From the sequence record NZ_CP090008.1: DNA of 64,000 bases; one strand, 5' to 3'. Numbering within the stretch: position 1 is the first letter of the stretch; each line of letters starts with the position of its first letter. The translations under genes and the position numbers were made by a program. Origin of the DNA: a plasmid. This document shows, piece after piece, positions 33,886-60,052 of this stretch. The notes under the pieces are model-generated. The model ran no database searches. It saw only the letters and a list, made by a program, of their open reading frames with translations, and was not told the DNA's origin.

Positions 33886-34547
33886 CCTATATCATTTTGT
33901 TTGTAGTTATGTTTGCTATCAAGTGTGTCACTCTTACTTTTGTAAAGAATAAAGAGTCTACAGTAGTCAGTACTTTTTTGAGTGGCACGAATCTGATTTT
34001 CCTTAATACTATTGTCTGGTTCCTACGATTAACAGCCATGACCCAATTTTATCTTTTAGTTGTGGACAATAATCTAACTGTTATCCCTATAATTGTTGGT
34101 TTTATTCTTCCCAATATCTTGTTCTGGTTTAAGAGTATTAAAGCTTCCTTATCGGATTTGCTTGTACGTTGGTTAAAATCAGTCATTGGTCATAAGTATA
34201 GAACATGCCCATTTTGTCATGAATCACATTTATTCTTTCGATACACCGAGGACCGCACGGCTGCTTATTACTATCTCTTGACAGAGGATGATAGTCTTGT
34301 GGCCATTGGAGATTTTGATAATAGTGATCACCCTGCACGATTCTTTTTAAGTAACGACGAATCGCATTTTGATGAACTGGCTGATACTATGCTACCTTAT
34401 ATGTTGCCTGGCATGGAAGAGGCGGTCTATGTAGGTGGGCGACAACAGCGATTGGCTAGAGCATTGTATTGTGTCGATTGCCAGGAACGAGTCAGTGAAG
34501 ATAGTGGGGTACAATTTGGCGAAGTGTTATTGAACAAGGTAAGCTAG
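33879..34547 (+). CDS. membrane protein with C-terminal Cys-rich (CPFC...CVDC) zinc-ribbon-like region
   Basis: Three transmembrane segments; 'CPFCHESH' and 'CVDCQERV'. Confidence 0.4.
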   Translation: MLAYIILFVVMFAIKCVTLTFVKNKESTVVSTFLSGTNLIFLNTIVWFLRLTAMTQFYLLVVDNNLTVIPIIVGFILPNILFWFKSIKASLSDLLVRWLKSVIGHKYRTCPFCHESHLFFRYTEDRTAAYYYLLTEDDSLVAIGDFDNSDHPARFFLSNDESHFDELADTMLPYMLPGMEEAVYVGGRQQRLARALYCVDCQERVSEDSGVQFGEVLLNKVS

Positions 34548-34574
34548 TTATTTCAAGTAGGAAATATAGTTGAA

Positions 34575-34645
34575 GTTCTCCTGAGACCATTTCACTAACT
34601 AGCGCTGCTTTTCTAGCTGTAAGGCTTCGTTACTATCCTATAACA
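34575..34645. mobile_element. IS3-family fragment (~70 bp)
   Basis: 'ctcctgagaccatttcactaactagcgctgcttttctagctgtaaggcttcg' matches 37636-37690 inside the IS3 element. Confidence 0.5.
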
Positions 34646-34673
34646 TATAGGTAAATCTCTGATCAAGCTACAA

Positions 34674-34708
34674 AAAAGCCAGCACTTTGAGTACTGGCTT
34701 TTTTGTAC
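34674..34708 (+). terminator. Rho-independent terminator
   Basis: aaaaaagccagcactttgagtactggcttttttgt. Confidence 0.6.
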
Positions 34709-34710
34709 AA

Positions 34711-35036
34711 TCTCTTTTAAATTATATTATTTGATTTTAATAGAAGTTAATTAATGTCCTAAAAAAAATCTTGTCCAATTCCACATAATTGCTACCTCTT
34801 TTATTCTCTTATTTTTTATGGTGTTATTGTATCAAAACTAAATGTTTTAACCCTTTTTTGTCGTTATCGAACAATAATTTATCAGAATCGGTAAAAATAA
34901 AACTTAGATAAGCAAAAAGTGATTAATTTAAGACCTCTTGTGATAATTGTAAAAATGATGCTGTGGTTGAAATATAATAGTCGTGTCAGTTAGGGAAACT
35001 AATAAGTGACCCGAATAGAATGAAAGGAGTAATAAG
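34711..35036 (+). repeat. Direct repeat A (~326 bp): promoter and 5' leader of the precursor gene; near-identical to 38247-38573
   Basis: ~95% identical over its full length to the region immediately upstream of the degenerate precursor copy next to the biosynthetic operon. Confidence 0.85.
34940..34985 (+). promoter_or_regulatory. Candidate promoter of the precursor array (-10 TATAAT at 34973-34978, ~55 nt upstream of the first start codon)
   Basis: 'ttgtaaaaatgatgctgtggttgaaatataat'; conserved in repeat B, where it reads 'gaagtataat'. Confidence 0.35.
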
Positions 35037-35195
35037 TTGAAAAACGAAAAAAATTTGCTCGAAGAGCTTGAAATTGACATTTTGGAGTTGGACGATGTAG
35101 AAGGTATTCCAGCAACAGCTGCATCAAGTGGTAGCGGTGGTAGTAGTACGTGTGGGTCAACCTCATGTTCATCATGTTCATCAAGTTGTGCTTAA
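35037..35195 (+). CDS. RiPP precursor peptide copy 1 (TTG start; LKNEKNLLEELEIDILELDDVEGIPATAASSGSGGSSTCGSTSCSSCSSSCA)
   Basis: RBS aaggag 8 nt upstream of TTG; 52 codons; the C-terminal 23 residues contain 13 Ser, 4 Cys and 2 Thr; acidic helical leader. Confidence 0.75.
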   Translation: MKNEKNLLEELEIDILELDDVEGIPATAASSGSGGSSTCGSTSCSSCSSSCA

Positions 35196-35245
35196 GGCAT
35201 AGTGCAATCATCTCGTTAAAAAAAGAAAGGAACATAAAATAAAGA

Positions 35246-35404
35246 ATGAAAGATGAAAAAAATTTGCTCGAAGAGCTTGAAATCGACATTTTGGAGTTGG
35301 ACGATGTAGAAGGTATTCCAGCAACAGCTGCATCAAGTGGTAGCGGTGGTAGTAGTACGTGTGGGTCAACCTCATGTTCATCATGTTCATCAAGTTGTGC
35401 TTAA
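35246..35404 (+). CDS. RiPP precursor peptide copy 2 (MKDEKNLLEELEIDILELDDVEGIPATAASSGSGGSSTCGSTSCSSCSSSCA)
   Basis: Identical unit; ATG start; RBS 'aaaggaac' upstream. Confidence 0.8.
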   Translation: MKDEKNLLEELEIDILELDDVEGIPATAASSGSGGSSTCGSTSCSSCSSSCA

Positions 35405-35454
35405 GGCATAGTGCAATCATCTCGTTAAAAAAAGAAAGGAACATAAAATAAAGA

Positions 35455-35613
35455 ATGAAAGATGAAAAAAATTTGCTCGAAGAGCTTGAAATCGACATTT
35501 TGAAGTTGGACGATGTAGAAGGTATTCCAGCAACAGCTGCATCAAGTGGTAGCGGTGGTAGTAGTACGTGTGGGTCAACCTCATGTTCATCATGTTCATC
35601 AAGTTGTGCTTAA
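35455..35613 (+). CDS. RiPP precursor peptide copy 3 (leader variant ILKLDD, E18K)
   Basis: 'tttgaagttggac' replaces 'tttggagttggac'. Confidence 0.8.
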   Translation: MKDEKNLLEELEIDILKLDDVEGIPATAASSGSGGSSTCGSTSCSSCSSSCA

Positions 35614-35663
35614 GGCATAGTGCAATCATCTCGTTAAAAAAAGAAAGGAACATAAAATAAAGA

Positions 35664-35822
35664 ATGAAAGATGAAAAAAATTTGCTCGAAGAGCTTGAAA
35701 TCGACATTTTGGAGTTGGACGATGTAGAAGGTATTCCAGCAACAGCTGCATCAAGTGGTAGCGGTGGTAGTAGTACGTGTGGGTCAACCTCATGTTCATC
35801 ATGTTCATCAAGTTGTGCTTAA
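35664..35822 (+). CDS. RiPP precursor peptide copy 4
   Basis: Identical repeat unit. Confidence 0.8.
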   Translation: MKDEKNLLEELEIDILELDDVEGIPATAASSGSGGSSTCGSTSCSSCSSSCA

Positions 35823-35872
35823 GGCATAGTGCAATCATCTCGTTAAAAAAAGAAAGGAACATAAAATAAAGA

Positions 35873-36031
35873 ATGAAAGATGAAAAAAATTTGCTCGAAG
35901 AGCTTGAAATCGACATTTTGGAGTTGGACGATGTAGAAGGTATTCCAGCAACAGCTGCATCAAGTGGTAGCGGTGGTAGTAGTACGTGTGGGTCAACCTC
36001 ATGTTCATCATGTTCATCAAGTTGTGCTTAA
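35873..36031 (+). CDS. RiPP precursor peptide copy 5
   Basis: Identical repeat unit. Confidence 0.8.
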   Translation: MKDEKNLLEELEIDILELDDVEGIPATAASSGSGGSSTCGSTSCSSCSSSCA

Positions 36032-36081
36032 GGCATAGTGCAATCATCTCGTTAAAAAAAGAAAGGAACATAAAATAAAGA

Positions 36082-36240
36082 ATGAAAGATGAAAAAAATT
36101 TGCTCGAAGAGCTTGAAATCGACATTTTGGAGTTGGACGATGTAGAAGGTATTCCAGCAACAGCTGCATCAAGTGGTAGCGGTGGTAGTAGTACGTGTGG
36201 GTCAACCTCATGTTCATCATGTTCATCAAGTTGTGCTTAA
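36082..36240 (+). CDS. RiPP precursor peptide copy 6
   Basis: Identical repeat unit. Confidence 0.8.
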   Translation: MKDEKNLLEELEIDILELDDVEGIPATAASSGSGGSSTCGSTSCSSCSSSCA

Positions 36241-36290
36241 GGCATAGTGCAATCATCTCGTTAAAAAAAGAAAGGAACATAAAATAAAGA

Positions 36291-36449
36291 ATGAAAGATG
36301 AAAAAAATTTGCTCGAAGAGCTTGAAATCGACATTTTGGAGTTGGACGATGTAGAAGGTATTCCAGCAACAGCTGCATCAAGTGGTAGCGGTGGTAGTAG
36401 TACGTGTGGGTCAACCTCATGTTCATCATGTTCATCAAGTTGTGCTTAA
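36291..36449 (+). CDS. RiPP precursor peptide copy 7
   Basis: Identical repeat unit. Confidence 0.8.
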   Translation: MKDEKNLLEELEIDILELDDVEGIPATAASSGSGGSSTCGSTSCSSCSSSCA

Positions 36450-36499
36450 GGCATAGTGCAATCATCTCGTTAAAAAAAGAAAGGAACATAAAATAAAGA

Positions 36500-36658
36500 A
36501 TGAAAGATGAAAAAAATTTGCTCGAAGAGCTTGAAATCGACATTTTGGAGTTGGACGATGTAGAAGGTATTCCAGCAACAGCTGCATCAAGTGGTAGCGG
36601 TGGTAGTAGTACGTGTGGGTCAACCTCATGTTCATCATGTTCATCAAGTTGTGCTTAA
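36500..36658 (+). CDS. RiPP precursor peptide copy 8
   Basis: Identical repeat unit. Confidence 0.8.
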   Translation: MKDEKNLLEELEIDILELDDVEGIPATAASSGSGGSSTCGSTSCSSCSSSCA

Positions 36659-36708
36659 GGCATAGTGCAATCATCTCGTTAAAAAAAGAAAGGAACATAA
36701 AATAAAGA

Positions 36709-36867
36709 ATGAAAGATGAAAAAAATTTGCTCGAAGAGCTTGAAATCGACATTTTGGAGTTGGACGATGTAGAAGGTATTCCAGCAACAGCTGCATCAAG
36801 TGGTAGCGGTGGTAGTAGTACGTGTGGGTCAACCTCATGTTCATCATGTTCATCAAGTTGTGCTTAA
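36709..36867 (+). CDS. RiPP precursor peptide copy 9
   Basis: Identical repeat unit; last of the array. Confidence 0.8.
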   Translation: MKDEKNLLEELEIDILELDDVEGIPATAASSGSGGSSTCGSTSCSSCSSSCA

Positions 36868-36924
36868 GGCATAGTGCAATCATCTCGTTAAAAAAGAAAG
36901 GAACATAAAATAAAAAAGGAAACA

Positions 36925-38215
36925 AGAGAAATAAGTAAAGGACTTAGTTCTGTATTTTACAGGACCAAGTCCTTTTAGTTTTACCTTGATTCGTTAATAA
37001 GAAAAATGGTCTAGCTTGTTCCAATTTACTTATTCGACTTAAATCTCTTTTCGGAATCGTTAAACATCTCAGACTTAAAGATGCCGAATAAGGTTTCCAT
37101 CATACTATTATCTATACTATTTCTCTGTAATATTTTGTTCTAGCATAACTATCACTTGTAACAAGTTCGATGACGTAGAAAGATTATAGGTAATAATTTC
37201 GCTATTAACGTTATCTAAAATTAGCGACAAATAGAGTTTTTAGCTGTTTACTGGAATGGCAAATTCTGTCACATCTGAGTAGCATTCTTTTCATTGATTT
37301 TTGATGTTTCAAATAGGTGATGATTAAGATTCTATGCTTTCTTGCGAACCTATCTTTGGTAGGAATAATACTTCCGTTTACGACGTATTCTAGCGATTAA
37401 GCCAAGAACTTTCATCAAACGTTGGATCTTTTTATGATTTATCACAAAGCCATGTTTTCCCAATTTAAGAGTCATTCGACGATAACCATAATTTCCTTTA
37501 TGCTCATAATAAATTGTCTGAATTTCGTCTTTAAACTATTTCTCTTTGTCAAGCCCCTCCAGTTGCTTCAACTGATAGTAGTAAGTTGAGCGAGGTAAAC
37601 GAGCCGTTTCAAGAAGCAAATCTAGTCGAAATCCTCCTGAAGCCATTTCTCTAATTGTCTCTGCTTTTCTCGCTGTAAGGCTTCGTCCCTGTCTTCTAGC
37701 TCTTTTAACTTTTTTAGGTAAGCCACCTCGGTACGTAAGCGTTCATTCTCCTCTTGGAGTCGCTCTAGTTCTGTCATTTCTTCCCAAGATTTCTTATGTT
37801 TACGTCCCATTTTAGGTGCTCCCCCTCTTGTTTTCTCAACAATAGTATACCCATTTTTCTTGTATTGTGCTGTCCAATTTGTCAATAGCGAAGGATTCGG
37901 TAGAGCATAATCTAAAGATACACTTTTTCGTGAACGACCTTCAAGTAGGACTTTATCAATCATTTCTTGTTTTAGTTCTGGAGAATAGTAACAATTCTTA
38001 CCTTTCTTGACAATTTCTACTCCGTAACGATCAATTAATTTCACCATGTACTTTAGACCAGAAACATCCACATCAAATTTTTTTGAAAGCTGTTTGAAGC
38101 TTTGTCCTTGTTTTCTTAGTTCATAAATCTGAACTTTATCGTCATAACTCAATTTCATAATAAAACACCCCAAAAGTTAGATTTTTTCTGTCTAACTTTT
38201 GGGGTGCAGTTCATC
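36925..38215 (-). mobile_element. IS3-family (IS150-group-like) insertion sequence with intact orfA and truncated or decayed orfB
   Basis: Left inverted repeat 'tgaactgcaccccaaaagttagacagaaaaaatctaacttttgggg' (revcomp of 38165-38215); orfA at 37622-38173. The orfB N-terminus is recognisable (revcomp of 37380-37620 reads ...RLPRSTYYYQLKQLEGLDKEK...) but the distal part (36930-37370) carries no ORF. Confidence 0.75.
37622..38173 (-). CDS. IS3-family transposase OrfA (helix-turn-helix plus leucine zipper)
   Basis: '[30 protein letters not shown]' HTH region; C-terminal coiled coil '[24 protein letters not shown]'. Confidence 0.8.
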
Positions 38216-38246
38216 AGTGTATTAGGAGTCATTAATTTTTAACAAT

Positions 38247-38573
38247 TTCTTTTAAGTTATATTATTTGATTTTAATAGAAGTTGATTAATGTCCTAAAAA
38301 AAATCTTGTCCAATTCCACATAATTGCTACCTCTTTTTATTCTCTTATTTTTTATGGTGTTATTGTATCAAAACTAAATGTTTTAACCCTTTTTTGTCGT
38401 TATCGAACAATAATTTATCAGAATCGGTAAAAATAAAACTTAGATAAGCAAAAAGTGATTAATTTAAGACCTCTTGTGATAATTGTAAAAATGATGCTGT
38501 GGTTGAAGTATAATAATCGTGTCAGTTAGGAGAGCTAATAAATGACCCCAGATAGAATGAAAGGAGTAATAAG
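38247..38573 (+). repeat. Direct repeat B (~327 bp): second copy of the precursor promoter/leader region
   Basis: Near-identical to 34711-35036. Confidence 0.85.
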
Positions 38574-38710
38574 TTGAAGATCGAAAAAATTTACAAGAAG
38601 AGTTTGAAATCGACATTTTGGAGTTAGATGATATAGAAGGAATTCCATTAACAGATGTATCAAGTGGTAATTATTACGTATGGAATAACCTTATGCTCAT
38701 CAAGTTTTGA
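38574..38710 (+). pseudogene. Degenerate tenth precursor gene (frameshifted N-terminus; core replaced by a Cys-free sequence)
   Basis: TTG AAG ATC GAA AAA ATT TAC AAG AAG AGT TTG AAA TCG ACA TTT TGG AGT TAG. The leader-like 'EIDILELDDIEGIP' is recognisable only in another frame, and the C-terminus reads ...SSGNYYVWNNLMLIKF with no Cys. Confidence 0.7.
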
Positions 38711-38816
38711 AAAAAATAGGAAGATGGACGTGCGATAGATAAACAGAAATATATATAATGTTCTTTAATTTTGAACAATTATATTTGTTTTCATAGTCAT
38801 AGAGGAATAAGAACAG

Positions 38817-39593
38817 ATGAGAAATTTAAAATATGTCATCCAAGAGGACAGTATGCTGCTATCATATTTTGGAAAAAGATGTAGGATTGCTTTACCTAAA
38901 AAGCTATCTAAGGATGAAGTTCTACAACTAGTTATTTCAAATATAAATGAAATTTTTGGATTAAAGCAAGAGTTTTCAAAATCACTCACCATGTTTAAGA
39001 TTGGGGAACAAATCTTTCGACTTCCCAAGGAAGCCGAAACTTCCTTAAAACGCTTTTTCCCAGCTATAAGATTACTTTCTGAGGAAGAAGAGTCTTTACT
39101 GAGACAAAATTTGCAGTTTCTAGGAAATTTGAAAGGAACGTTCTACCTTAAAACAGATGGAAAGCAAATGATTCATCAATTAGAAGAAGGAATTTCTATT
39201 TATCACGTGCTGGACCAAGCAGACACTATATTTAAAACACCAACTATTAATCGTCTTCTAGATATTAATATTTTGAAAAATATATATTTTGAGAGTTTAA
39301 TAGACTCATTTGATATCATCAATCGTCAAGGAACATGTCACTTAGAAATTTTTACTAATGAAAAAGAAAAATATAGTTTTGATGATACCAACATGGAGGA
39401 TCTTGTTTTTAAAGCAGTCAAAAAAATAATGGAGTCTAAACTAAGTTATAGATACGTAGGCATAGGGAGAAATAGAGGCGAATGCCTTGAGGATTATTTG
39501 ATGAAACATGGTGCCTCTAGTACTCCTATATTTTGTCAAGATAGTTTATCGAAATTCTTGGGTCTTGTACTTGCTAAGAAGGAGAATCTATGA
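38817..39593 (+). CDS. Hypothetical protein, first gene of the biosynthetic operon (258 aa)
   Basis: ORF in an operon context; overlaps the next gene by 4 nt. Unassigned; a candidate leader-recognition or scaffold protein. Confidence 0.5.
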   Translation: MRNLKYVIQEDSMLLSYFGKRCRIALPKKLSKDEVLQLVISNINEIFGLKQEFSKSLTMFKIGEQIFRLPKEAETSLKRFFPAIRLLSEEEESLLRQNLQFLGNLKGTFYLKTDGKQMIHQLEEGISIYHVLDQADTIFKTPTINRLLDINILKNIYFESLIDSFDIINRQGTCHLEIFTNEKEKYSFDDTNMEDLVFKAVKKIMESKLSYRYVGIGRNRGECLEDYLMKHGASSTPIFCQDSLSKFLGLVLAKKENL

Positions 39594-41320
39594 ATATTCA
39601 GCAATACGTAAAAGTAATACTGTCAAAATCTTGTGAAACACAGCCAATAGAGCTAGTCTACCAAGGGATGAGGTTATATTTTGGAGAACTGGATTATTTT
39701 TACTCAAACAGAGTAGAAGAAGGGATAATCATTTTCTGGGATGAAGACAAACTGATTGTAAGTCCCGTATTTCATAAGAAAGAAAAAAATTGTAGCATCT
39801 GTTTCTTAGAACATCGGAGGAAATTTAAAATAGATGATTCTATTGGAAGAGATGGCGACACGATTGAAATAGAGGATAACAATTTATTTGAAGAAAAATT
39901 TCTTTACGTAATATCTAACCTGATACAGGTCAAATCGCAGCCTCCTTTATTTGATTATTTTATAATTGAGGATTGGAAAATTTCAAAGTGTCAATTCTTT
40001 CGAATTGCTAATTGTGACACCTGTATTTCTAATAGAGAAAGTGTAGAAGAGATCTTGGCTACAGGAAATAGTCGTTGCCAGGCATCCTCTTTGAGAGAAA
40101 AGTTGGGAGATTATTCTGCTTATATTCAATTGGGTAATTCTGATACTGGGATTTTCAATAGAGAGTTAACAACTCTACTAGATAATGGTGTAACGGTTGA
40201 ACTACAATACTCACTTTCTAATAATGAGATTATTTCGGGAATTGGTATTGATAAAAGCTATAAAAGAGCAAAAGCTAAGGCATTTCTAGAAGCGATGGAA
40301 CGTTATAGTGGCATTACCTCCAAGGGGCAGAAACGATATTGGTTCTCCATAGAAGACTTGAGAGGGAAGTCAATCGATTTCCTAAATCCTAACGATTATT
40401 TTCTTGAACTTGAGAAAGAAGAGGTGGCTAGTACGAATAAATTTTTCTGGTTGCCAGCTTACAATTACCAAAGTAATGACTATGCTTTAATACCTGAAGA
40501 TTTTATCATTTATAAAACAGAGAGAACTCCTGAAAGTAAAAAATTAATGAATATGAGTTCAAATGGACATGCAATTGGAAATAGCTATAAAGAAGCGGTT
40601 ATTTTTTCACTTTTTGAAATGTACGAACGAGATCATTTTCTTGTTCATTGGTACGAGAAACAGCCACCTCAAGAAATAAATCAAGATAGCATTCTAGATG
40701 AAGATATTCACCATTATTTAAGTATGATTAAAAACTTAGGGTATGAGGTCTCGATTTATCAAATGCTTTCTAGCAAGGTGATAAGCATTTATTGGACCAT
40801 CGCTAGAGGAAAAAATGGTAGCAAGTTTGCGACTTATTCAACAGCAGGTGCTCATCTTTTTGGAAAGACGGCAATTATTTCTGCATTAAAAGAGCTATAT
40901 TTTGCACTTTATATTTATGATGAAGACGTCGAACATATTAAAGAAAATGGGCGACAAATGCAAGCTCAAGATGTTAAAACTGTGGCAGATCATGCAATTT
41001 ATTATTCAATTGAGGATAGAAGTATACAGTTTAATTTTTTGAAAGGTGTAGAGGTTATCGATTTTGAAATAAAAGATGACTACTCTATCGAGTTAGATTC
41101 CTACTATTCAGATCTATTGGAGTTTACGAATAAGCTATTTGGGAATTTTTATATCGTAGATAATACCCCAAAAGGTTTGAAGGAAATTGGGTTATGCGAG
41201 GTGAAAGTGTTTGTTCCTGGTATGCAAGATATGAATTTTGGTTATGCAAATCAGTACATCAATCACCAGCGGATTCATCTGGACGGTAATCAGGAAGTAC
41301 CAATTCACCCCTTCCCATAA
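39590..41320 (+). CDS. YcaO-domain protein 1 (azoline-forming cyclodehydratase-type; 576 aa)
   Basis: YcaO ATP-binding motifs 'KAFLEAMERYSG' and 'SNGHAIGNSYKEAVIFSLFEMYERD'; C-terminal PxPxP-type tail 'VPIHPFP*'. Confidence 0.75.
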   Translation: MNIQQYVKVILSKSCETQPIELVYQGMRLYFGELDYFYSNRVEEGIIIFWDEDKLIVSPVFHKKEKNCSICFLEHRRKFKIDDSIGRDGDTIEIEDNNLFEEKFLYVISNLIQVKSQPPLFDYFIIEDWKISKCQFFRIANCDTCISNRESVEEILATGNSRCQASSLREKLGDYSAYIQLGNSDTGIFNRELTTLLDNGVTVELQYSLSNNEIISGIGIDKSYKRAKAKAFLEAMERYSGITSKGQKRYWFSIEDLRGKSIDFLNPNDYFLELEKEEVASTNKFFWLPAYNYQSNDYALIPEDFIIYKTERTPESKKLMNMSSNGHAIGNSYKEAVIFSLFEMYERDHFLVHWYEKQPPQEINQDSILDEDIHHYLSMIKNLGYEVSIYQMLSSKVISIYWTIARGKNGSKFATYSTAGAHLFGKTAIISALKELYFALYIYDEDVEHIKENGRQMQAQDVKTVADHAIYYSIEDRSIQFNFLKGVEVIDFEIKDDYSIELDSYYSDLLEFTNKLFGNFYIVDNTPKGLKEIGLCEVKVFVPGMQDMNFGYANQYINHQRIHLDGNQEVPIHPFP

Positions 41321-41345
41321 TCTTATAATTAAAAGAGGATAAAAA

Positions 41346-42188
41346 ATGAATTTAATTGAAATTAACAATTTAAGAAAAAACTATGGCGTAAAAGAAGTCT
41401 TGAAAGGTTTGGATTTGTCCCTAAAGAATGGTCAAGTTTATACATTGCTTGGAAAAAACGGTGCAGGGAAAACAACATTTATCAATATTTTACTTAGACT
41501 AATCAAGGAAGATTCTGGTAGCGTAGTCTCAAACGTTAGCGTAAAAAAAGAAGTTGGTGTAGTCTTTCAGGAAGACTATTTTCCAAAAGAGACAACAGTT
41601 TCGGATTTGATAAAGCTACAAGCTTCATTTTTCCATAAGAAGGTTAATGTTGATGAAGAATTAAAAATAATGGGATTAGAGAAAGAGAAGTTTCAAAAGG
41701 TAGGAACACTTTCGGGAGGACAAAAACGGAAACTTTCGTTCCTATTAGCGACCTTACATGATCCTAAACTTTTGATTTTGGATGAACCTACTGCTGGTAT
41801 GGATTATGATAGTGTAGAAAAGTTTGTTCAACAGATTAAAAAATTAAAGGCAAAGGGAAAAACAATTCTCTTAATTACACACGATTTGTACCAAATTGAA
41901 TCTTTTGCAGATTATATTCTGTTGCTAAATGAAGGTGTATTCGAAGAGAAAATCTCAGTAAATGATATGTTTATGGAATCGTTGTATGAATTTCCCAAAG
42001 AGATGGTTATGAGTGGAGCTGCGAAGGAGCAATTGTTTTATAAGAATGATCAAACTTATGTTTTCAGTAGTCCATACGCACAAAAAATAATTGAACAAAA
42101 TGGTATTAGGAATCCAGAAAACTTTAAGCGTCATAAACAAGTAGTAGATATTTTCAAACGTATTTCATTTGTAGAAGGAGATAAATAA
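41346..42188 (+). CDS. ABC transporter ATP-binding protein
   Basis: Walker A 'GKNGAGKTT', ABC signature 'LSGGQKRK', Walker B 'LLILDEPT'. Confidence 0.85.
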   Translation: MNLIEINNLRKNYGVKEVLKGLDLSLKNGQVYTLLGKNGAGKTTFINILLRLIKEDSGSVVSNVSVKKEVGVVFQEDYFPKETTVSDLIKLQASFFHKKVNVDEELKIMGLEKEKFQKVGTLSGGQKRKLSFLLATLHDPKLLILDEPTAGMDYDSVEKFVQQIKKLKAKGKTILLITHDLYQIESFADYILLLNEGVFEEKISVNDMFMESLYEFPKEMVMSGAAKEQLFYKNDQTYVFSSPYAQKIIEQNGIRNPENFKRHKQVVDIFKRISFVEGDK

Positions 42189-42907
42189 TGATTTCAATTG
42201 TTCAGCAGATAAAAAATAGTTTACAAAATAAGCGATTTATCATTTTTACGATTTTATTCCCAGTGGTATTTTACGTTTTCTTTATAAAGCAACTTAAGTT
42301 TGTAAACACAGATGATAGTGGAATGATTGCATTGTTTTCTGCTATGTTTGGAATCGCAGGAAGTGGCTTGAACACCTTTAGTCAAAAAGTATCGAAAGAC
42401 AAAGACTACTTCCGTATTATGGATAAAATCTCGCCCTATTCTTATGCACATTATATGTTTGATAGTGTATTAGCACAAACGATCTTGAATATTTTAATTT
42501 TGTTCTCAGTTACTTTAGCTGGTGTATTGATTGGTAAATTAAATGTAACAGGGTCTTACTTGTCAATTTCTAGTCTCCTGCTATACTTTGGCTTTTATTA
42601 TATTGTTATTGGCTTCCTATTAGGAACAGTATTTAATGATGAAACACTTGCTTCTGCCTCAATGCCAATCTTTTTCCTATTCATGATGCTTAATATTACT
42701 CCAAATATCATGACAACATTAAAAATGCCAGATATCATTGTAACGATTCAGAAATTTTTCCCGGGCTATTATTATAATGAAGTTTTATTGCATCAGACTC
42801 CAGAAAAGTTCTTACAAGCATGCTTGGTCATTACAATTTATGTTTTTATCGCAGGGACTATCACAGTAATTGTAAATAAATTGTTACAAATTAATAGGAG
42901 AGACTAA
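42188..42907 (+). CDS. ABC-2-type transporter permease (6 TM)
   Basis: Start is translationally coupled to the ATPase stop (ATGA overlap); multiple hydrophobic helices. Confidence 0.65.
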   Translation: MISIVQQIKNSLQNKRFIIFTILFPVVFYVFFIKQLKFVNTDDSGMIALFSAMFGIAGSGLNTFSQKVSKDKDYFRIMDKISPYSYAHYMFDSVLAQTILNILILFSVTLAGVLIGKLNVTGSYLSISSLLLYFGFYYIVIGFLLGTVFNDETLASASMPIFFLFMMLNITPNIMTTLKMPDIIVTIQKFFPGYYYNEVLLHQTPEKFLQACLVITIYVFIAGTITVIVNKLLQINRRD

Positions 42908-44001
42908 TGGTAGAAATGACTTCAGATAGGTTGTTTTCACACTATGAACAATTACATAGGCGACCTGAGCCAGGTTTTTCAGAAGAAAAAACTAAGTGTT
43001 ATATTAAAGACTTCTTAAGTCCATATCCAGAACTAAAAAAAATTTCGGAAGGTAAGATGGGATTGATTTATCAATACGTAGGGCGAAAGGAAGAAAAACA
43101 TCATTATGATTTAGCTTTTCGTGCTGAATTAGATGCTGTAGAAATGGATGAATTCTATGGAACCTACTATCATGGTTGTGGACATGATGCACATACAAGT
43201 ATCCAACTGGAATTAATCACCTATGTTTGTCGTAACAAACCAAAGCTAAATGTACTTTTCATTTTTCAAGCAAGTGAAGAAAAGTATGGTGGTGCAAAAG
43301 AAGTTTGTAAGTTTTTGAAAGACAAAAGGATTACTTTATCGAGAATATATGCTTTACACGTTACCTCGGATTTGTATCCCAATTATGTATCAATCAATAA
43401 GGGAGACATTCTAGCTGCTGGTTTGACTTGCCATTTAAAACTTTCATTAAAGAATAGTGGACATGTCAGTAATCATGGGGACAGTGCAGCGAGTTTATTT
43501 TCTAAATTAGTTTTACTATCAGAAAGCCTAGATGAACTGGATTGTCAGTGTAGAATTACTAACTTTTTCACCAATGGCTCTCATAATGTATCTCCTACAG
43601 AAATAAAATTTAATATTACGTTTAGAGGAAAAAGTAGTGATATTTGCAAGCAGCAACATCAGAAATTTTTAGATCAGTTAAACCTAGAATATCAAAAGGA
43701 AGTTATTATGGATTATCCTTTATTACATAATAATACAATGCTATATGAATGGGTTGAACAAGTATTATCTCAAAGTAAAGTAGTAAAGACTCTAAAAACT
43801 CCATTTTTGTTTTCTTGTGATGATTTTGCCTTCTATGGAAAAGAGCTAGATGTACCGACATGTTATTTCTTTATTGGTGCATATAGTCAGGGTCATCCGA
43901 TTCATTCGAATGAATTTATTACACCGAAGGCTAGCTTATTAAGAGGTTTGTATGTGATGACATTATTGATAGAAAAGGAGAATGAGCGAATTAATGGTTA
44001 A
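42907..44001 (+). CDS. M20-family (M20D-like) amidohydrolase/peptidase
   Basis: Metal-binding signature 'YHGCGHDAHT'. Confidence 0.6.
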   Translation: MVEMTSDRLFSHYEQLHRRPEPGFSEEKTKCYIKDFLSPYPELKKISEGKMGLIYQYVGRKEEKHHYDLAFRAELDAVEMDEFYGTYYHGCGHDAHTSIQLELITYVCRNKPKLNVLFIFQASEEKYGGAKEVCKFLKDKRITLSRIYALHVTSDLYPNYVSINKGDILAAGLTCHLKLSLKNSGHVSNHGDSAASLFSKLVLLSESLDELDCQCRITNFFTNGSHNVSPTEIKFNITFRGKSSDICKQQHQKFLDQLNLEYQKEVIMDYPLLHNNTMLYEWVEQVLSQSKVVKTLKTPFLFSCDDFAFYGKELDVPTCYFFIGAYSQGHPIHSNEFITPKASLLRGLYVMTLLIEKENERING

Positions 44002-46513
44002 AAATGTATATTATAGAAAAACAAATTTTTCGAATGGCGAATTTTCTAAGTTTTTTCAAAAAGAAATATTTGAAAAAATACGAAATAATCAAAAATATCG
44101 CCTCAATTTGTTAAAACAAGTGAGTTCTATTCGAGAATCGGGAATTGAACAATTAAATCAAGTTATTCAGGAATGTCCGGAAGGTAAAGATAAGAAGCAA
44201 TTGTTAAAGTTCTCGCATGACTTCTACAATAATAGAGGAGATTTAGGAAAGAAATTTCAAAAAATAGTATTTCTACTTCCACCAGATTTAGCATCAGAAT
44301 TTGATTCTTATTTTAAAATGAAAGAACAAATTTTGATGATTGATAATAGAATTGAAGAACAGGTAGATCAACAATATTTAAATGAGAAACAAATGATGCT
44401 ACAGGGACTTCGTGATAATCTAGATTTTGTTCAGAACACAAAGATGATTGGGCAGACTCTCTATCAAAAGTTAGAAAAGCTACTCAAAACAGATGTTAAA
44501 AATCATAATAAGAAGCAACGGCAAATGGATGGTTTTTTGTACAATTATTATACTCGTATTGCTACAAAGACAAGTCCCTTGGGGTTATTAGGCACAACAA
44601 GTGTTTATGGGCAAGAAGAATTTCATTTAGATAGAGAGATTTTTATGTCGGTGAACTCTTCAATCATTTTAAAGATATTTGATAGGCTTTATCAAAACCC
44701 AAAAAATCAGCCAGTTTTGAACTTCAAACTAAATGAGACACTAATTTTAAAAGAGAATAAGTATTACGTAACGGTTTTCAATGATATCAAAGGAAAAAGT
44801 TTATACCGTAATCGTCAGGAATTGGTTACACTCCCTGAAAGTAAAATCTTAAATGAGATTTTACAGCTTTTCAAAGGAAAAGGGCAGTTATCGGGACGTG
44901 ACATCTTAGATAAACTCTCTCAAAAAGGGCAAGAAAATCTTCTTACAAAATTGTTGGAGAATTGTATTTTACTTCCAGCTGATCAATTAACTATTGAAGG
45001 TAAGCAAAGTATGTCAGAAGCGTTTCTGCAGAAATTAAAGGGTATTTCTTCGGTTATGTTTTCAAATGAAATTGAGATTTTCGAAAGAATAGTTGCATTT
45101 GAGCAAGAAGAGTTTTCTTGGGAGATATATGATCGATTGACGGAAGAAGTTCATAATCTTGTTCTGTATTATGGCATTGAAGGATTTGACAAATCATCGT
45201 ATGTTTCGATAGATAAGCTTGCTTCTAATACTGAGAATGATTTAGAAAAAGAGGTTCAAGTTGTAAAAGAACAACAGAAGTGTTTCAATGATCTATCAAA
45301 ATTTATTTCTATTTTTGATATTTCAACACGCAGTAAGTATTTAGCCTATGAGATGCTTCGAAAAAAATATGGTGGAGAATTCAAGCCTCGAAACGCTCGA
45401 GAAATGAGTAAATTTTTGCGAGATCTATCAACTACGCTTTTTCAAAGAGATGGCTATTGGATGGAATCATTTGGCTATTTAGGAGAAAAGTACCAGCATA
45501 AAATTGATAATCAACTCTTGAAGTTGAAGAAGGAAATTCTTGAGCAATTGCTTGGTCAAGATTCGGGGGATGGATCAGAACTATTGATTTCAACCGAATT
45601 GTTGAATAGTTCAACGAAACAATTAGAGAAACTTGTTGGACAAAGCCATAAATCTCGTGCTTATTTTTTACAAGTTAGTCCAAGTAATCAAATAGTCTTT
45701 AATCATATTTATAAAGGCTATGGAGTCTACCGTAGACGGTTTAATCATTATCTTCCAACAGATCAAGAAAGTTATAGATTAGATGGAGCTTTAGTAGATA
45801 TTCCAATGACATTTGGTTTCAATGCAAATATTCGAGAAAGTACAGATAAGACCTTATCCTTACCATTAGGTGAACGAGCTTTTGCCAGCTCTGAACAATT
45901 GAACTGGTTAGATTTAGGTTTTCGACTTTCAAAACAATCAAAGGAAATCGAAGTGTTCGAAAAGGCAACGGGTGCTATTATTTATCCACACTTCTTAGGA
46001 AGTTTAATAACAGTCGCCCTCCCTTCATTAGTTGCGGTTTTTAATTCAATTACTCTCAATGATTCTATTTATTTTGATTTTGGAGAATTGTTACTCAGAC
46101 AGAAAATAAAAAATCATTCTCAGGAAAAAGTAGTGGTCCCAAGACTTTGCTTTGAAAAAGTTGATTTTATATTATCTCGAAAAAAATGGTATCTTGCTTG
46201 TGAAAAATTACATACCATTTTACAGGAAGATACGTCAATGGGTCAAAAATGGTTAGAAGTTATCGAGTATTTTGAAGAAGAAGAGTTGCCATTATCTTTC
46301 TTTGTAAAAGACTTTTTCGAGTCTTATAATCAGGACTCGGAGTTACTAAAAACAAAACCACTATACATCAATTTTGAATCTTTTTTAAGCTTTAAAGCAT
46401 TTGTAGGTTTGGTGAAGAAGAAGGATAGAATTTTAATCGAAGAGGTCTTGCCAGAATGTACTGATACGGAAACAGATATGATTACAGAGTTAATTGTTGA
46501 AACAAATGATTGA
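43982..46513 (+). CDS. LanB-type dehydratase, N-terminal (glutamylation) domain protein - split-LanB component (843 aa)
   Basis: Assigned by size, operon position directly before a ~360-aa partner, and co-occurrence with YcaO and SagB-type genes. No short diagnostic motif was read, so this needs HMM confirmation (Lant_dehydr_N). Confidence 0.45.
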   Translation: MSELMVKNVYYRKTNFSNGEFSKFFQKEIFEKIRNNQKYRLNLLKQVSSIRESGIEQLNQVIQECPEGKDKKQLLKFSHDFYNNRGDLGKKFQKIVFLLPPDLASEFDSYFKMKEQILMIDNRIEEQVDQQYLNEKQMMLQGLRDNLDFVQNTKMIGQTLYQKLEKLLKTDVKNHNKKQRQMDGFLYNYYTRIATKTSPLGLLGTTSVYGQEEFHLDREIFMSVNSSIILKIFDRLYQNPKNQPVLNFKLNETLILKENKYYVTVFNDIKGKSLYRNRQELVTLPESKILNEILQLFKGKGQLSGRDILDKLSQKGQENLLTKLLENCILLPADQLTIEGKQSMSEAFLQKLKGISSVMFSNEIEIFERIVAFEQEEFSWEIYDRLTEEVHNLVLYYGIEGFDKSSYVSIDKLASNTENDLEKEVQVVKEQQKCFNDLSKFISIFDISTRSKYLAYEMLRKKYGGEFKPRNAREMSKFLRDLSTTLFQRDGYWMESFGYLGEKYQHKIDNQLLKLKKEILEQLLGQDSGDGSELLISTELLNSSTKQLEKLVGQSHKSRAYFLQVSPSNQIVFNHIYKGYGVYRRRFNHYLPTDQESYRLDGALVDIPMTFGFNANIRESTDKTLSLPLGERAFASSEQLNWLDLGFRLSKQSKEIEVFEKATGAIIYPHFLGSLITVALPSLVAVFNSITLNDSIYFDFGELLLRQKIKNHSQEKVVVPRLCFEKVDFILSRKKWYLACEKLHTILQEDTSMGQKWLEVIEYFEEEELPLSFFVKDFFESYNQDSELLKTKPLYINFESFLSFKAFVGLVKKKDRILIEEVLPECTDTETDMITELIVETND

Positions 46514-46530
46514 GAAAAGAGGAGGAGATT

Positions 46531-47607: not shown

Positions 47608-48135
47608 ATGCATATTTTACTTGAAAATGGAGAAAAATATATTTTTGATGGAGTCTACTATAGAAAATTAAATTCAAAGACTAGGCACTTATATTTTCAT
47701 CAGTTAAAACATAACCATTCCATTTGTTTAGTTAAGAGTCAGCGTGTGAAGTGTCCGTCTCTTACTTTTGAATTGGTGGATGTGGACAATATTGGTGATC
47801 TTCCTGTATTGGATAAAAATGATTGTAAGAAAATAGTTGAATTCTTTGCCAAAAACATGACAAAAACTTTTGATAAAGTGATGGAAGTTAGTCAAACAAT
47901 GAATCAGCTTGGATCTCCGACTTTTTCAGATGGTATCGACACAACAGTAGGAAAATCAATTGTAAAAGTATTAGCTGCACAGTTATTACGCACCTACTTG
48001 AGAGAGCAGGGGTGGATAGTACGAGTAGATTTTGAAAATTACCCTAGTAGAAAGGGACAGTTTTTAAAAGTAGATCTCCTCGAAGGCAAAGATATTTATT
48101 GTGGGGTAGTAAATGAATACGAACTTAATTACTAA
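47608..48135 (+). CDS. hypothetical protein (175 aa) within the biosynthetic operon
   Basis: Start is 1 nt after the previous stop; overlaps the next gene by 23 nt. Confidence 0.45.
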   Translation: MHILLENGEKYIFDGVYYRKLNSKTRHLYFHQLKHNHSICLVKSQRVKCPSLTFELVDVDNIGDLPVLDKNDCKKIVEFFAKNMTKTFDKVMEVSQTMNQLGSPTFSDGIDTTVGKSIVKVLAAQLLRTYLREQGWIVRVDFENYPSRKGQFLKVDLLEGKDIYCGVVNEYELNY

Positions 48136-49792: not shown

Positions 49793-49798
49793 TATAAT

Positions 49799-51520: not shown

Positions 51521-51537
51521 AAGCAAGGAGAATTGTT

Positions 51538-52589: not shown

Positions 52590-52735
52590 TCCTTTCTAGA
52601 CTGCTACCTTTATAAATGCTCTCTATTTCGTAACGATCAATTAATCACGACATGAACTTTGTCCTCATAAGTTAATTTAATGAGAAAAGCACCCCAAAAG
52701 TTAGATTTATTTGTCTAACTTTTGGGGTGCAGTTC
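52590..52735 (-). mobile_element. IS3-family left-end fragment (inverted repeat plus first ~25 codons of orfA)
   Basis: 'caccccaaaagttagatttatttgtctaacttttggggtgcagttca' at 52686-52733 and 'ttcgtaacgatcaattaat...gaactttgtcctcataagttaatttaatgag' match the 38000-38215 end of the IS3 element. Confidence 0.7.
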
Positions 52736-52791
52736 AAAAATTATTTGCACACGGAGAAGATAATATTATTTTAGTAACTAATTTTTTATGA

Positions 52792-54028: not shown

Positions 54029-54064
54029 CAAAGTATACCAGAAAAGTAATGGAAAGGTCAGCTT

Positions 54065-60049: not shown

Positions 60050-60052
60050 TCT

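Follow-up and report, generated by a model that had tools for sequence, protein, structure and literature searches.

Duplication and concerted evolution of the precursor promoter in a streptococcal thiopeptide cluster point to a probable co-regulation of substrate and enzymes in trans

Introduction

How do the precursor genes and the modifying enzymes of a thiopeptide cluster stay in step when a dead insertion sequence separates them? The question is raised by a cluster in the window, as we call the whole 64,000-nt stretch of plasmid record NZ_CP090008.1 that was analysed, where one promoter region occurs twice, ahead of a tandem array of precursor genes and again, followed by the relic of a precursor, ahead of the biosynthetic operon. 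The cluster is of the Streptococcus salivarius megaplasmid type, and its thiopeptide identity holds because the precursor, YcaO/SagD, SagB and Lant_dehydr_C/thiopep_ocin matches all exceed their curated cut-offs. We consider it probable that an ancient duplication divided the cluster into two transcription units, co-regulated in trans from promoters that gene conversion maintains.

Twenty-one related loci were mapped, a PacBio-resolved plasmid included. One relative, pIKMIN-B501 (the S. salivarius DB-B5 megaplasmid, NZ_CP054154.1), resembles the window in its genes, in the layout A-array-IS debris-B-relic-operon and in the relic lesions. It differs in belonging to another sequence lineage, 4-9% diverged, in having seven array units, two of them damaged, and in the IS110 and IS3 debris that separates its array from the second promoter. 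The record annotates six precursors; the genome announcement mentions just ‘a thiazolyl peptide bacteriocin locus’ and does not describe the promoter duplication, the relic or concerted evolution (PMC7530928).

Anatomy of the locus

Repeat A (34696..35036, plus strand) comprises promoter P_A and the 5' UTR of the precursor array, and repeat B (38236..38573, plus strand) comprises promoter P_B and a 5' UTR. The copies are 95.9% identical over 338 nt (E 4e-156), and repeat search, pairwise alignment and blastn found no third copy in the 64-kb window; the adjoining coding parts are less alike (85%, 35041-35133 versus 38577-38669). Each copy has a direct-repeat box (34919-34948 in A, 38455-38484 in B) and a TATAAT -10 element (34973-34978 and 38509-38514). 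A strong bidirectional terminator hairpin (34669..34707; -20.5 kcal/mol, z -4.7) marks the upstream edge of copy A and is not present at copy B. Sub-threshold matches to Rfam Thr_leader coincide with this hairpin.

Nine thiopeptide precursor genes follow repeat A in tandem (35037..36867, plus strand) as 209-bp units, each encoding 52 aa with identical cores (TRF: period 209, 9.0 copies, 99% matches, 35038-36922); the start codon is TTG in unit 1 and ATG in units 2-9. The products match Pfam Thiopep_pre at 46.9 bits (cut-off 23.5) and NCBIfam thiazolyl_B at 43.2 bits (cut-off 30). The units differ by 0.24% inside the window versus 8.7% from those of pIKMIN-B501, and long or complete records hold 7, 8 or 9 of them. 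In the thiocillin cluster of Bacillus cereus ATCC 14579, tclE-H are four identical tandem precursor genes; the two clusters share a YcaO-type cyclodehydratase, a dehydrogenase, a split LanB dehydratase and identical tandem precursors. Unlike the thiocillin cluster, the one in the window has nine precursor copies (7-9 in relatives), a dead IS3 between array and enzymes, enzymes with their own duplicate of the precursor promoter and a precursor pseudogene, and a much longer, Ser/Gly-rich core (SSGSGGSSTCGSTSCSSCSSSCA).

Directly after the last unit lies an IS3-borne hairpin with a T-run (36938..36985, z -3.45). It is the sole terminator-like site called by the scan, recurs in the intact IS of locus L022 and in the window's other IS3 copy, and is probably the terminator of the array transcript. 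The IS3-family element itself (36914..38213, minus strand) is dead: its IRL (TGAACTGCACCCC...) is intact and terminates at 38213, the IRR lacks its terminal bases or has them in degenerate form, and of the two reading frames orfA (37622-38173, minus strand) is whole and orfB is shattered by at least four in-frame stops, at least three frameshifts and an internal deletion. Positions 37141-38213 match an annotated intact IS3-family element at 86.6% DNA identity, and 36937-37103 give a further 72% match. Two scraps have the same orientation: a 101-bp fragment of the orfA/orfB junction region upstream of copy A (34530..34630, minus strand; 79% identity to 37586-37686 and 78% to the intact IS in L022) and an IRL-end remnant just 3' of the operon (52622..52738, minus strand; 88-90% identity to the IS3 end). 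Between the element and repeat B are 22 bp (38214..38235), which show no homology to the copy-A flank and are missing from L1-type loci.

The precursor relic (38574..38710, plus strand) follows repeat B and precedes a twelve-gene thiopeptide operon (38817..52284, plus strand), which encodes a 258-aa unknown, YcaO, an ABC ATPase and permease, an M20 peptidase, a LanB-N-like protein, a 365-aa protein, a 175-aa protein, YcaO/SagD, Lant_dehydr_C, a SagB dehydrogenase and a 263-aa protein. Seven genes compared with pIKMIN-B501 have dN/dS of 0.04-0.32 at dS of 0.06-0.13; the operon is under purifying selection. The original prediction had this anatomy (the repeat, an IS3 between the copies, a Cys-less frameshifted relic 3' of copy B) right in every detail; the repeats it drew at 34711-35036 and 38247-38573 fall within the boundaries given here, and its IS3 span of 36925-38215 was essentially correct (about 36914-38213 here).

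The ancestral layout and the origin of the duplication

An ancestral order of promoter, precursor and biosynthetic genes had been postulated from the window, and it is what relatives lacking the IS contain. Four outgroups, S. equinus ATCC 33317 (L025), an assembly labelled ‘S. canis’ (L027) and the metagenome contigs L030 and L032, have homologous precursors of identical leader-core design with one variable core residue, and the operon order of the window. They differ from it in that a single promoter and a strong attenuator hairpin enclose one live precursor (L025, L027), two (L032) or three (L030), directly upstream of the homologue of the 258-aa protein, with no IS, no second promoter and no relic. 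The promoter region of L027, L030 and L032, with its direct repeat and -10 element, is homologous to the window's, and with L027 the homology spans the whole of repeat A. The relic stands where the live precursor stands in L025 and L027 and where L023 (a 71% homologue) has an intact precursor 3' end; from start to start, precursor and operon are 249 bp apart in the outgroups versus 243 bp for relic and operon in the window. These single-promoter relatives represent the ancestral state.

The two copies divide the ancestral flanks between them. In L027, L030 and L032 the single promoter is preceded, at equal distance, by a hairpin (GCCAGCAC...GTGCTG) homologous to that at 34669..34707. This ancestral feature is retained at copy A, and copy B retains the ancestral downstream flank. 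The layout is common to all mapped loci that span the region, bar one, and these form two lineages with the same relic lesions. Because the 1-nt frameshift and the 8-nt deletion are common to W-type and L1-type loci, the sequences place the duplication before the split of the two lineages. The architecture is fixed and widespread, its operon selectively maintained, and it is not a recent strain-level disruption.

The part assigned to IS activity in the original prediction fares less well. Duplication did occur and a dead IS3 lies exactly at the junction, but this is circumstantial, and a causal role of IS3 is unproven. The arrangement is not that of a simply duplicated IS3-promoter-precursor unit, because the IS3-like scrap at 34530..34630 lies beyond the ancestral hairpin and is not the positional homologue of the copy-B IS. 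It is possible, if rather unlikely, that the two promoters are not of local origin, two diverged cluster copies having been joined by IS3-mediated recombination (a cointegrate or composite element); reciprocal loss, in this doubtful scheme, would have left one copy with its promoter and precursors only and the other with its enzymes and no precursor. Same-orientation IS3 ends do bracket P_B, relic and operon (36914-38213 and 52622-52738), a third scrap precedes copy A, the IS3 ahead of P_B varies between loci (77% in L034, 93% in L018), and A and B diverge more in their unconverted part (21% plus indels) than the lineages do from each other. Relaxed constraint on the relic also explains that divergence, however, no remnant of a second biosynthetic gene set adjoins the array, and an ancestral upstream flank at A with an ancestral downstream flank at B is what simple tandem duplication predicts.

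Concerted evolution of the two promoters

Duplicated bacterial sequences such as tufA/tufB and the rRNA operons evolve in concert by gene conversion. The promoter copies follow the same pattern: between 34734 and 34937, 12 sites sort by lineage and none by copy, and from 34972 on none sorts by lineage and more than 20 by copy. Among 40 promoter copies, the upstream segment shows a difference of 3-5 between A and B and of 14-18 between lineages; in the downstream segment the corresponding values are 25-30 between A and B and 10-17 for the same copy across lineages. Because the upstream 259 bp (34707-34965 in repeat A) sort by lineage and the sequence from the -10 box onward by copy, this regulatory half is evidently kept alike within each plasmid lineage by gene conversion. 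As in tufA/tufB and the rRNA operons, paralogues are closer within a genome than orthologues between genomes, and the tract boundary is sharp; unlike in those cases, the tract is non-coding and regulatory, 259 bp long, ends just upstream of the -10 box and adjoins a freely decaying pseudogene. Locus L007 joins an A-type upstream half to a B-type downstream half and lacks both array and IS, the structure expected of crossing-over between A and B, although this short-read MEGAHIT contig may reflect an assembly path; no further A/B hybrids turned up in a metagenome census.

Control of the two transcription units

A LytTR box is a pair of 9-10-nt direct repeats spaced by 12 nt, and the promoter that follows it has no -35 element. 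P_A and P_B share a 9-nt/12-nt/9-nt direct repeat that precedes TATAAT by about 24 nt, and both lack a -35, which is why the consensus promoter scan called neither. The repeat, GTGATTAAT-N12-GTGATAATT, occurs in the window only in the two promoter copies. It is in register in L027, L030 and L032 (ATGATTGAT or AGGATTGAT, N12, ATGATAACT), with a conserved TATAAT 24-25 nt 3' of it; against L027 the half-sites match at 7/9 and 7/9 and the spacer at 7/12, only modestly better conservation in an AT-rich region.

A LytTR response regulator (53297-54028) and a GHKL histidine kinase (54065-55378) lie downstream of the operon (53297..55378, plus strand; Pfam LytTR 76.4 bits, Response_reg 36.2 bits, HATPase_c_5 66.7 bits). 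The pair keeps its place downstream of the cluster in pIKMIN-B501, and it lies beside the cluster in both lineages of S. salivarius as well as in S. equinus (L025), where the neighbouring regulator is 55% identical to the window's over its full length, the 258-aa protein being 54% identical. Regulator and kinase are candidate regulators of P_A and P_B, and the regulator is predicted to bind the direct repeat. No matching box was found upstream of the two genes or elsewhere in the window, so no autoregulatory loop backs the assignment.

Could P_B be a passenger, the operon being read through from P_A or transcribed from a promoter within the IS? Gene conversion can proceed without selection and could by itself keep the upstream halves identical, no promoter was called in the repeat, and substitutions specific to B lie on either side of the -10 box, at 38508 and 38516. 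We nevertheless find this improbable. The hairpin with its T-run and the 1.3 kb of antisense IS lie between P_A and the operon, and both lineages have kept TATAAT, direct repeat and RBS intact at copy B, next to a relic that diverges neutrally. Three loci (L009, L014, L020) have an extra 1.6 kb with IS110 between array and IS3, yet their 258-aa protein is identical or near-identical (99.6-100% over the gene's first 284 nt), and their downstream operon genes are called at full length. Separate control of the two units, which the original prediction had thought possible, is likewise unlikely, given the same direct-repeat box and -10 element in regulatory halves that conversion keeps alike.

Decay of the operon-proximal copy

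The relic retains an RBS and a TTG start codon at 38574 but lacks 1 nt after it, which closes the ORF at 17 codons. In the leader frame the first start codon comes only at 38618, the frame closes at 38710 without a Cys (SSGNYYVWNNLMLIKF), and the core has lost 8 nt. L001, L016 and L017 carry the same lesions. Between lineages the relic has diverged by 12%, about the synonymous divergence of neighbouring genes and hence close to the neutral rate, and its distance to L027 is twice that of the live copy (36% versus 18%); the decay claimed for this copy is borne out. That the relic is instead a live divergent gene (a regulatory peptide, an upstream ORF or a frameshift-restored precursor) is very improbable: RBS and start codon are conserved (TTG in the window, ATG in L001) and both lineages have a 17-codon ORF (MKIEKIYKKSLKSTFWS and MKVEKICWKSLKSTFWS), but that ORF is merely the out-of-frame product of the common 1-nt loss, the divergence is that of synonymous sites, the A-run is just 6 nt long, and even with frameshifting the core would have the deletion and no in-frame Cys.

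The attenuator hairpin has gone the same way. Between precursor and first biosynthetic gene the window retains only a decayed remnant of the ancestral attenuator/terminator (38746..38791, plus strand), with z of 0.02 and of -0.95 in L001 versus -5.5, -4.4, -3.6, -3.6 and -2.6 in five outgroups; decay affects both S. salivarius lineages and is confined to loci with a dead precursor. In the outgroups only about 25 nt separate hairpin and first operon gene, which leaves their operon without a promoter of its own. Neither this decay nor concerted evolution figured in the original prediction.

The repeats are almost certainly not an assembly duplication, a concern raised with that prediction: near-identical repeats and a 209-bp tandem array are hard for assemblers, and the array has collapsed to 1-3 units in many scaffolds assembled from short-read metagenomes, but the copies carry fixed diagnostic differences and different flanks, and the two-copy layout recurs in the complete, PacBio+Illumina hybrid pIKMIN-B501 (PMC7530928), in the complete chromosome-sized record CP145864.1 and in independent metagenome scaffolds spanning the region.

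Discussion

The relatives lacking the IS, the comparison originally proposed, show one promoter, one to three precursors, a hairpin and the operon, and suggest a history. The ancestor had a single promoter, which would have read through the precursor gene or genes and a leaky terminator hairpin into the biosynthetic operon. In the S. salivarius lineage the promoter and first precursor would have been duplicated, an IS3 coming to lie at the junction. The upstream copy, keeping the ancestral upstream flank, would then have been amplified into the tandem array, nine units in the window. The downstream copy stayed joined to the operon as in the ancestor, its precursor turning into a pseudogene and its attenuator decaying. 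Conversion between copies 3.5 kb apart keeps the 259-bp regulatory tract identical in each lineage, unequal exchange homogenises the array units, and crossing-over between repeats A and B can remove array and IS together.

In the LytTR-regulated plantaricin (pln), blp and sakacin regulons, one quorum-sensing promoter recurs ahead of several operons, and the nisin operons, with PnisA and PnisF under NisRK, are organised likewise. The thiopeptide cluster resembles these regulons in placing structural and maturation/transport genes in separate units with repeated promoter boxes and one two-component system. It differs in that the second promoter is a duplicate of a whole promoter (about 340 bp) with a pseudogene scar, in that gene conversion keeps the duplicate identical, and in that LytTR control is putative.

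From P_A, nine precursors would be transcribed up to a probable stop in the IS; from P_B, the presumed operon promoter, an untranslated relic leader and then the twelve genes. The direct repeat and TATAAT without -35 have the architecture bound by LytTR response regulators, and because both promoters share it and the cluster has a LytTR regulator and kinase beside it, substrate and enzymes would be switched on together. Precursor and enzyme units are thus most likely uncoupled in cis and co-regulated in trans.

The promoter repeat and the cluster it serves

Two copies of one promoter repeat lie in the cluster: copy A (34696-35036), which carries promoter P_A and heads the precursor array, and copy B (38236-38573), which carries P_B and precedes a precursor pseudogene (the relic) and the biosynthetic operon. 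The two are 95.9% identical over 338 nt (E 4e-156; repeat search, pairwise alignment and blastn), with weaker similarity extending beyond the start codon into leaders that are 85% identical; blastn finds no third copy within the 64-kb window. The original prediction of a repeated promoter, a precursor array, an intervening IS3 element and an operon-side relic is confirmed, with coordinates essentially unchanged. A 40-codon ORF within repeat A (34789-34911) is rejected as a gene, because its frame is lost where a T-run differs in length, namely in copy B and in the two copies on megaplasmid pIKMIN-B501 (NZ_CP054154.1) of Streptococcus salivarius DB-B5. Rfam, run on 34400-39000, identifies no known RNA family within the repeat, its only output being two sub-threshold Thr_leader matches, both on the terminator hairpin (34647-34743).

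Nine 52-codon ORFs follow copy A as tandem 209-bp units (TRF: 9.0 copies, 99% matches, 35038-36922), and every one of the nine encodes the core SSGSGGSSTCGSTSCSSCSSSCA. The precursor matches the Pfam family PF19409 Thiopep_pre (46.9 bits, cut-off 23.5) and the NCBIfam models NF033400 (43.2 bits, cut-off 30) and TIGR03892 (40.6 bits, cut-off 25). Identical multi-copy precursor genes are known in thiopeptide clusters, e.g., tclE-H of the thiocillin cluster, which the present array resembles in this respect. Unit 3 of the window (35455-35613) has an E-to-K change in the leader (ILKLDD); in the pIKMIN-B501 array, unit 3 is frameshifted and unit 6 is short of one Val codon (9416-9618 and 10038-10193 of that locus, L001).

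Among the products of the twelve-gene operon 3' of copy B (38817-52284) are two YcaO proteins, a SagB-type dehydrogenase and a putative split dehydratase of the LanB type, together with an ABC transporter, an M20 peptidase and several proteins without annotation. The YcaO proteins score 147.8 and 222.9 bits against Pfam, a 559-aa protein scores 246.3 bits against TIGR03604 (cut-off 219.25) and the SagB family model TIGR03605 gives 92 bits (cut-off 78.4); a YcaO/SagD cyclodehydratase and a SagB-type dehydrogenase for azole formation are both present in the operon. The C-terminal part of LanB matches Lant_dehydr_C (123.8 bits, cut-off 24.4) and TIGR03891 (85.9 bits, cut-off 48.45), and the N-terminal part of the 843-aa protein scores 26.8 bits, slightly below the Pfam cut-off of 28. 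The candidate pyridine synthase, a 365-aa protein (46510-47607), reaches only 25.2 bits against the TbtD/PbtD model NF045556, which has a cut-off of 325. The first operon product, a 258-aa protein (38817-39593), has no match in Pfam, NCBIfam or PDB sequences, and its homologues are confined to these streptococcal clusters; a sequence search of the PDB gives no usable relative for the 365-aa protein either. From its gene content, the locus is predicted to be a biosynthetic gene cluster for a thiopeptide (thiazolyl peptide). A literature search found no description of the product, the core sequence or the promoter duplication; for the locus, it turned up only the DB-B5 genome announcement, which mentions a thiazolyl peptide locus (PMC7530928). 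Downstream, an McrBC-type restriction system (AAA_5 + McrBC domains) occupies 58760-61354, beside NUDIX and DUF6994 genes.

One layout in two lineages

Relatives were obtained via PLSDB, exact-protein look-ups and a homologue search; a genome-contig scan with the 258-aa protein gave no confirmed relative. The public assembly collection lists the exact 258-aa protein in 2,492 blocks (exact-protein look-up). The closest annotated record is pIKMIN-B501, assembled from PacBio plus Illumina reads (PMC7530928), which has the order 222-aa gene, hairpin, copy A, 7-unit array, IS debris, copy B, relic and operon. Blastn mapping of 21 related loci finds the same layout in all that span the region, except contig L007; contigs L010 and L011 start inside the array. 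Short-read scaffolds show a collapsed array of one to three units, and eight units are present in the chromosome-sized record CP145864.1. Because the layout recurs in pIKMIN-B501 and in other loci, the repeats are not an assembly duplication, an outcome that the original prediction had allowed for. The related loci split into two sequence lineages, W-type (window-like) and L1-type (pIKMIN-B501-like). CP145864.1 (2.25 Mb; loci L009 / L020) bears the entire cluster together with plasmid-type neighbours (a relaxase-like gene etc.), which suggests either integration of a megaplasmid segment or fusion of two molecules in the assembly.

The ancestral arrangement and the dead precursor

The search with the 258-aa protein returns relatives at 50-71% identity, among them four single-promoter outgroups: S. 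equinus ATCC 33317 (L025), an assembly labelled 'S. canis' (L027) and two metagenome contigs (L030 and L032). L025 and L027 have a single live 52-aa precursor (6752-6910 and 6739-6897, respectively) 90-100 bp upstream of the 258-aa homologue, and at that position two tandem precursors are found in L032 (579-928) and three in L030 (3080-3620); all four lack both an IS and a second promoter. Measured between starts, precursor and first gene are 249 bp apart in L025, and relic and first gene 243 bp apart in the window. The window repeat and the lone promoter of L027 are homologous from end to end. A strong hairpin upstream of copy A (34669-34707; -20.5 kcal/mol, z -4.7) is absent at copy B; L027, L030 and L032 carry a corresponding hairpin equally far upstream of their one promoter. 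The hairpin and the position of the relic together indicate that copy A retains the ancestral upstream flank and copy B the ancestral downstream flank, the pattern predicted by duplication of a promoter-plus-precursor segment; the four outgroups thus support the proposed descent from a promoter-precursor-biosynthesis layout. The core varies among the loci at one site, SGG-X-STCG: S. salivarius has S, L025 and L027 have H, and the arrays of L030 and L032 each combine Y with F; because Y and F cores share an array, some strains should make two thiopeptide variants from one cluster.

The relic (38574-38710) retains an RBS and a TTG start after copy B, and 1 nt lost a few codons in leaves an ORF of 17 codons. 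In the leader frame, the first start codon lies at 38618, the core has an 8-nt deletion, and the frame ends at 38710 without a single Cys. Rescue by programmed frameshifting is rejected on account of the additional 8-nt core deletion. W-type and L1-type relics are 12% different, approximately the synonymous rate, and the relic diverges from the L027 precursor by 36%, compared with 18% for the live copy; constraint has therefore been relaxed, as expected of a pseudogene. That the operon-side copy is a decayed precursor was correctly predicted. The intact 3' end of a precursor sits exactly where the relic does in L023, a locus with a 71% homologue of the 258-aa protein, whose contig breaks off within that precursor.

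Age of the duplication and gene conversion

When the four copies (A and B of the window, A and B of pIKMIN-B501) are aligned and scored per site, the repeat divides into two halves with opposite histories. Across 34734-34937, 12 sites sort by lineage and 0 by copy; from 34972, the first base 5' of TATAAT, onward, 0 sites sort by lineage and more than 20 by copy, the 1-nt frameshift and 8-nt deletion among them. A wider comparison of 40 promoter copies from 22 sources gives the same picture. Within a lineage, the upstream part (34707-34965) of A and B shows 3 (W-type) or 5 (L1-type) differences, against 14-18 across lineages for any copies, whereas the downstream part (34966-35130) shows 25-30 differences between A and B within a lineage and 10-17 across lineages for the same copy. 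Since the lesions are common to both lineages, the segment was duplicated and the proximal precursor died before the lineages split, and since the upstream 259 bp are alike within each plasmid, they have been homogenised since then, i.e., by gene conversion, a process well known between duplicated sequences. Concerted evolution of this kind is evident in the ratios of 12:0 and 0:>20 sites and holds over the 40 copies.

The array evolves as the upstream half of the promoter does, being homogenised within a plasmid: its units are 0.24% different within the window and 2.1% different within pIKMIN-B501, against 8.7% between the two. For seven operon genes compared between W-type and L1-type, dN/dS is 0.04-0.32 at dS 0.06-0.13, and these low ratios mean that the enzymes have been under purifying selection ever since the rearrangement. 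The prediction of a duplicated and disrupted locus stands as to the ancestral layout, the duplication, the relic and the position of the IS; the architecture is not a recent disruption but old, fixed and apparently functional.

Two probable transcription units with one type of promoter

RiPP clusters usually have one promoter and a leaky terminator that fixes the precursor-to-enzyme ratio. The outgroups have this attenuator feature: hairpins with a U-run follow the last precursor (-27.4, -24.5, -24.5, -22.4 and -17.5 kcal/mol; z -5.5, -4.4, -3.6, -3.6 and -2.6; n=5), the first biosynthetic gene begins about 25 nt past the hairpin, and the outgroup operon is predicted to lack a separate promoter. 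In both S. salivarius lineages, the attenuator hairpin between precursor and enzymes has decayed to background (z 0.02 in the window, -0.95 in L001). The sole terminator-like site from the scan is an IS-borne hairpin with a T-run after the array (36938-36985, z -3.45), past which lie 1.3 kb of antisense IS and, in some relatives, an IS110 element. With the operon under selection and this hairpin and the IS behind the array, the operon would need copy B as its promoter, and we infer that P_B fills this role. The decay of the attenuator fits, as it would be pointless when no precursor is made from the P_B transcript. Transcription from P_A would thus yield the precursor array and transcription from P_B the enzyme operon, two units uncoupled in cis and likely co-induced in trans; in lactic acid bacteria, separate bacteriocin operons with one type of quorum-sensing promoter are standard. 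The separate control envisaged in the original prediction is unlikely, given that both copies keep the TATAAT and the direct repeat and that their upstream 259 bp are homogenised.

The TATAAT is kept at 34973-34978 and 38509-38514, with no recognisable -35 at either copy in a promoter scan, and 24 nt upstream of it lies the direct repeat GTGATTAAT-N12-GTGATAATT (34919-34948 and 38455-38484). LytTR response regulators (agr, com, blp, pln) bind two 9-nt direct repeats separated by a 12-nt spacer in promoters that lack a -35, and both copies have this architecture (9-12-9 repeat, -10, no -35 called). The direct repeat is in register in L027, L030 and L032, its half-sites conserved only slightly better than the spacer. 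A LytTR regulator (53297-54028) and a GHKL kinase are encoded just downstream of the cluster (53297-55378 for the two); both genes recur in pIKMIN-B501 and next to the S. equinus cluster (L025 1214-3652). The window regulator is 55% identical to that of S. equinus over its full length; the figure for the biosynthetic 258-aa protein is 54%. The window contains no identified pheromone gene, and no further direct-repeat box occurs upstream of the regulator genes or elsewhere in it at 0-2 mismatches, matches at 3 mismatches being at chance level. By analogy with the known systems, the LytTR response regulator is a likely candidate regulator of P_A and P_B, acting through the putative box.

In S. 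equinus, the regulator and kinase genes lie upstream of the cluster, accompanied by those for a C39-peptidase ABC exporter and a further LytTR protein of 110 aa. L025 also has a classic LytTR box, ATTCATGAC-12-ATTCATTAC (6358-6388), about 390 bp upstream of the precursor, and, in the leader between them, two tiny ORFs of 16 and 12 codons (6573-6715), each with an RBS.

Mobile elements at the junction

The IS3-family element between the array and copy B is on the minus strand and shares 86.6% DNA identity over 1074 nt (37141-38213) with an annotated intact IS3, with weaker similarity back to 36937. Its orfA-orfB layout is confirmed, OrfA being 85% identical over 178 aa and the OrfB pieces collinear with the reference. 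The left inverted repeat (TGAACTGCACCCC...) is present, with its end at 38213, and the opposite one has missing or degenerate terminal bases; orfB is interrupted by at least four in-frame stops and at least three frameshifts and lacks reference residues ~173-206. A complete pair of terminal inverted repeats and an intact transposase, as in a mobile IS3, are thus not found here; the degenerate right end and shattered orfB make the junction IS3 a dead, fixed remnant. Beside the shattered orfB, orfA (37622-38173; 183 aa, HTH) has survived intact, at 85% identity to the reference, which may be chance or the retention of a small DNA-binding protein. The IS3 upstream of copy B is 77% identical to the window junction IS3 in L034 and 93% in L018, and the junction IS is therefore polymorphic between samples. 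A second IS3-family copy in the window (807-2090) is ~77% identical to the junction copy.

In L009, L014 and L020, an intact IS110 element (L009 2712-3914; L014 6445-7797) lies inside the IS3-terminal hairpin between the array and IS3 (window-equivalent ~36973-36976), and pIKMIN-B501 has IS110 debris at the same hairpin junction (L001 10631-11285), which suggests that the hairpin is repeatedly targeted by IS110. Seen in the window only, an IS110-family element with two ORFs (253 and 128 aa) occupies 32018-33185, between thioredoxin-like and 211-aa genes.

Origin of the duplication

The original prediction attributed the duplication to IS activity. IS3 is indeed located exactly at the junction, with its array-side end lost, and may have had such a role, but the geometry does not fit simple duplication of a unit that includes the IS. 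Similar IS3 ends are found directly after the last operon gene (a left-end remnant at 52622-52738, 88-90% identical and oriented as the junction IS3) and upstream of copy A (a 101-bp scrap at 34530-34630, 79% identity); these and the lost end make IS involvement plausible. Copy B, the relic and the operon are flanked by IS3 ends and resemble a decayed composite element. An alternative to duplication of a promoter-plus-precursor segment is that two cluster copies were merged by IS3 recombination and then underwent reciprocal loss; the flanking IS3 ends speak for this, but we hold it rather unlikely, and the flank pattern is what segment duplication predicts. The L030 and L032 arrays show that a precursor can be amplified in tandem without an IS.

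The duplicated promoter could also be no scar but a maintained design, in which conversion keeps two identical quorum-sensing promoters firing array and operon together without an attenuator and the direct repeats, 3.5 kb apart, serve as a recombinational switch, an A x B crossover excising array and IS. In L007 (a MEGAHIT contig of 89 kb), the upstream half is A-type and the downstream half B-type, followed by the relic and operon, with array and IS absent; this would be the expected product of a crossover within a 173-bp block identical between A and B, but the hybrid could also be an assembly path. A pattern scan of JGI metagenomes gave three promoter copies and no further A/B hybrid, too small a sample for a frequency of array deletion. 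Design and switch taken together seem improbable; if true, the switch would yield, in the oral population, non-producers that keep the enzymes, the transporter and presumably immunity.

A simple tandem duplication of an IS3-promoter-precursor unit fails, since the IS3-like scrap lies upstream of the ancestral hairpin at copy A and the IS replaces the hairpin at copy B; the 22 bp at 38214-38235 match the copy-A hairpin at random level (alignment judged by eye).

Implications

The finding reveals no new kind of system and is of modest general surprise, and its value is practical for this oral thiopeptide cluster, which is very common in human-associated samples. For expression or refactoring, the real structural genes are those of the array 1.7 kb upstream, the ORF beside the enzymes is dead, and the operon most likely relies on its own copy of a regulator-dependent promoter. 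The combination of a whole-promoter duplicate with a pseudogene scar, conversion confined to the regulatory half, attenuator loss and a 7-9-copy array appears new. The cluster offers a clean natural example of a RiPP operon split into substrate and enzyme units, in which a pseudogene scar dates the event, regulatory DNA undergoes concerted evolution and a redundant attenuator has been lost.
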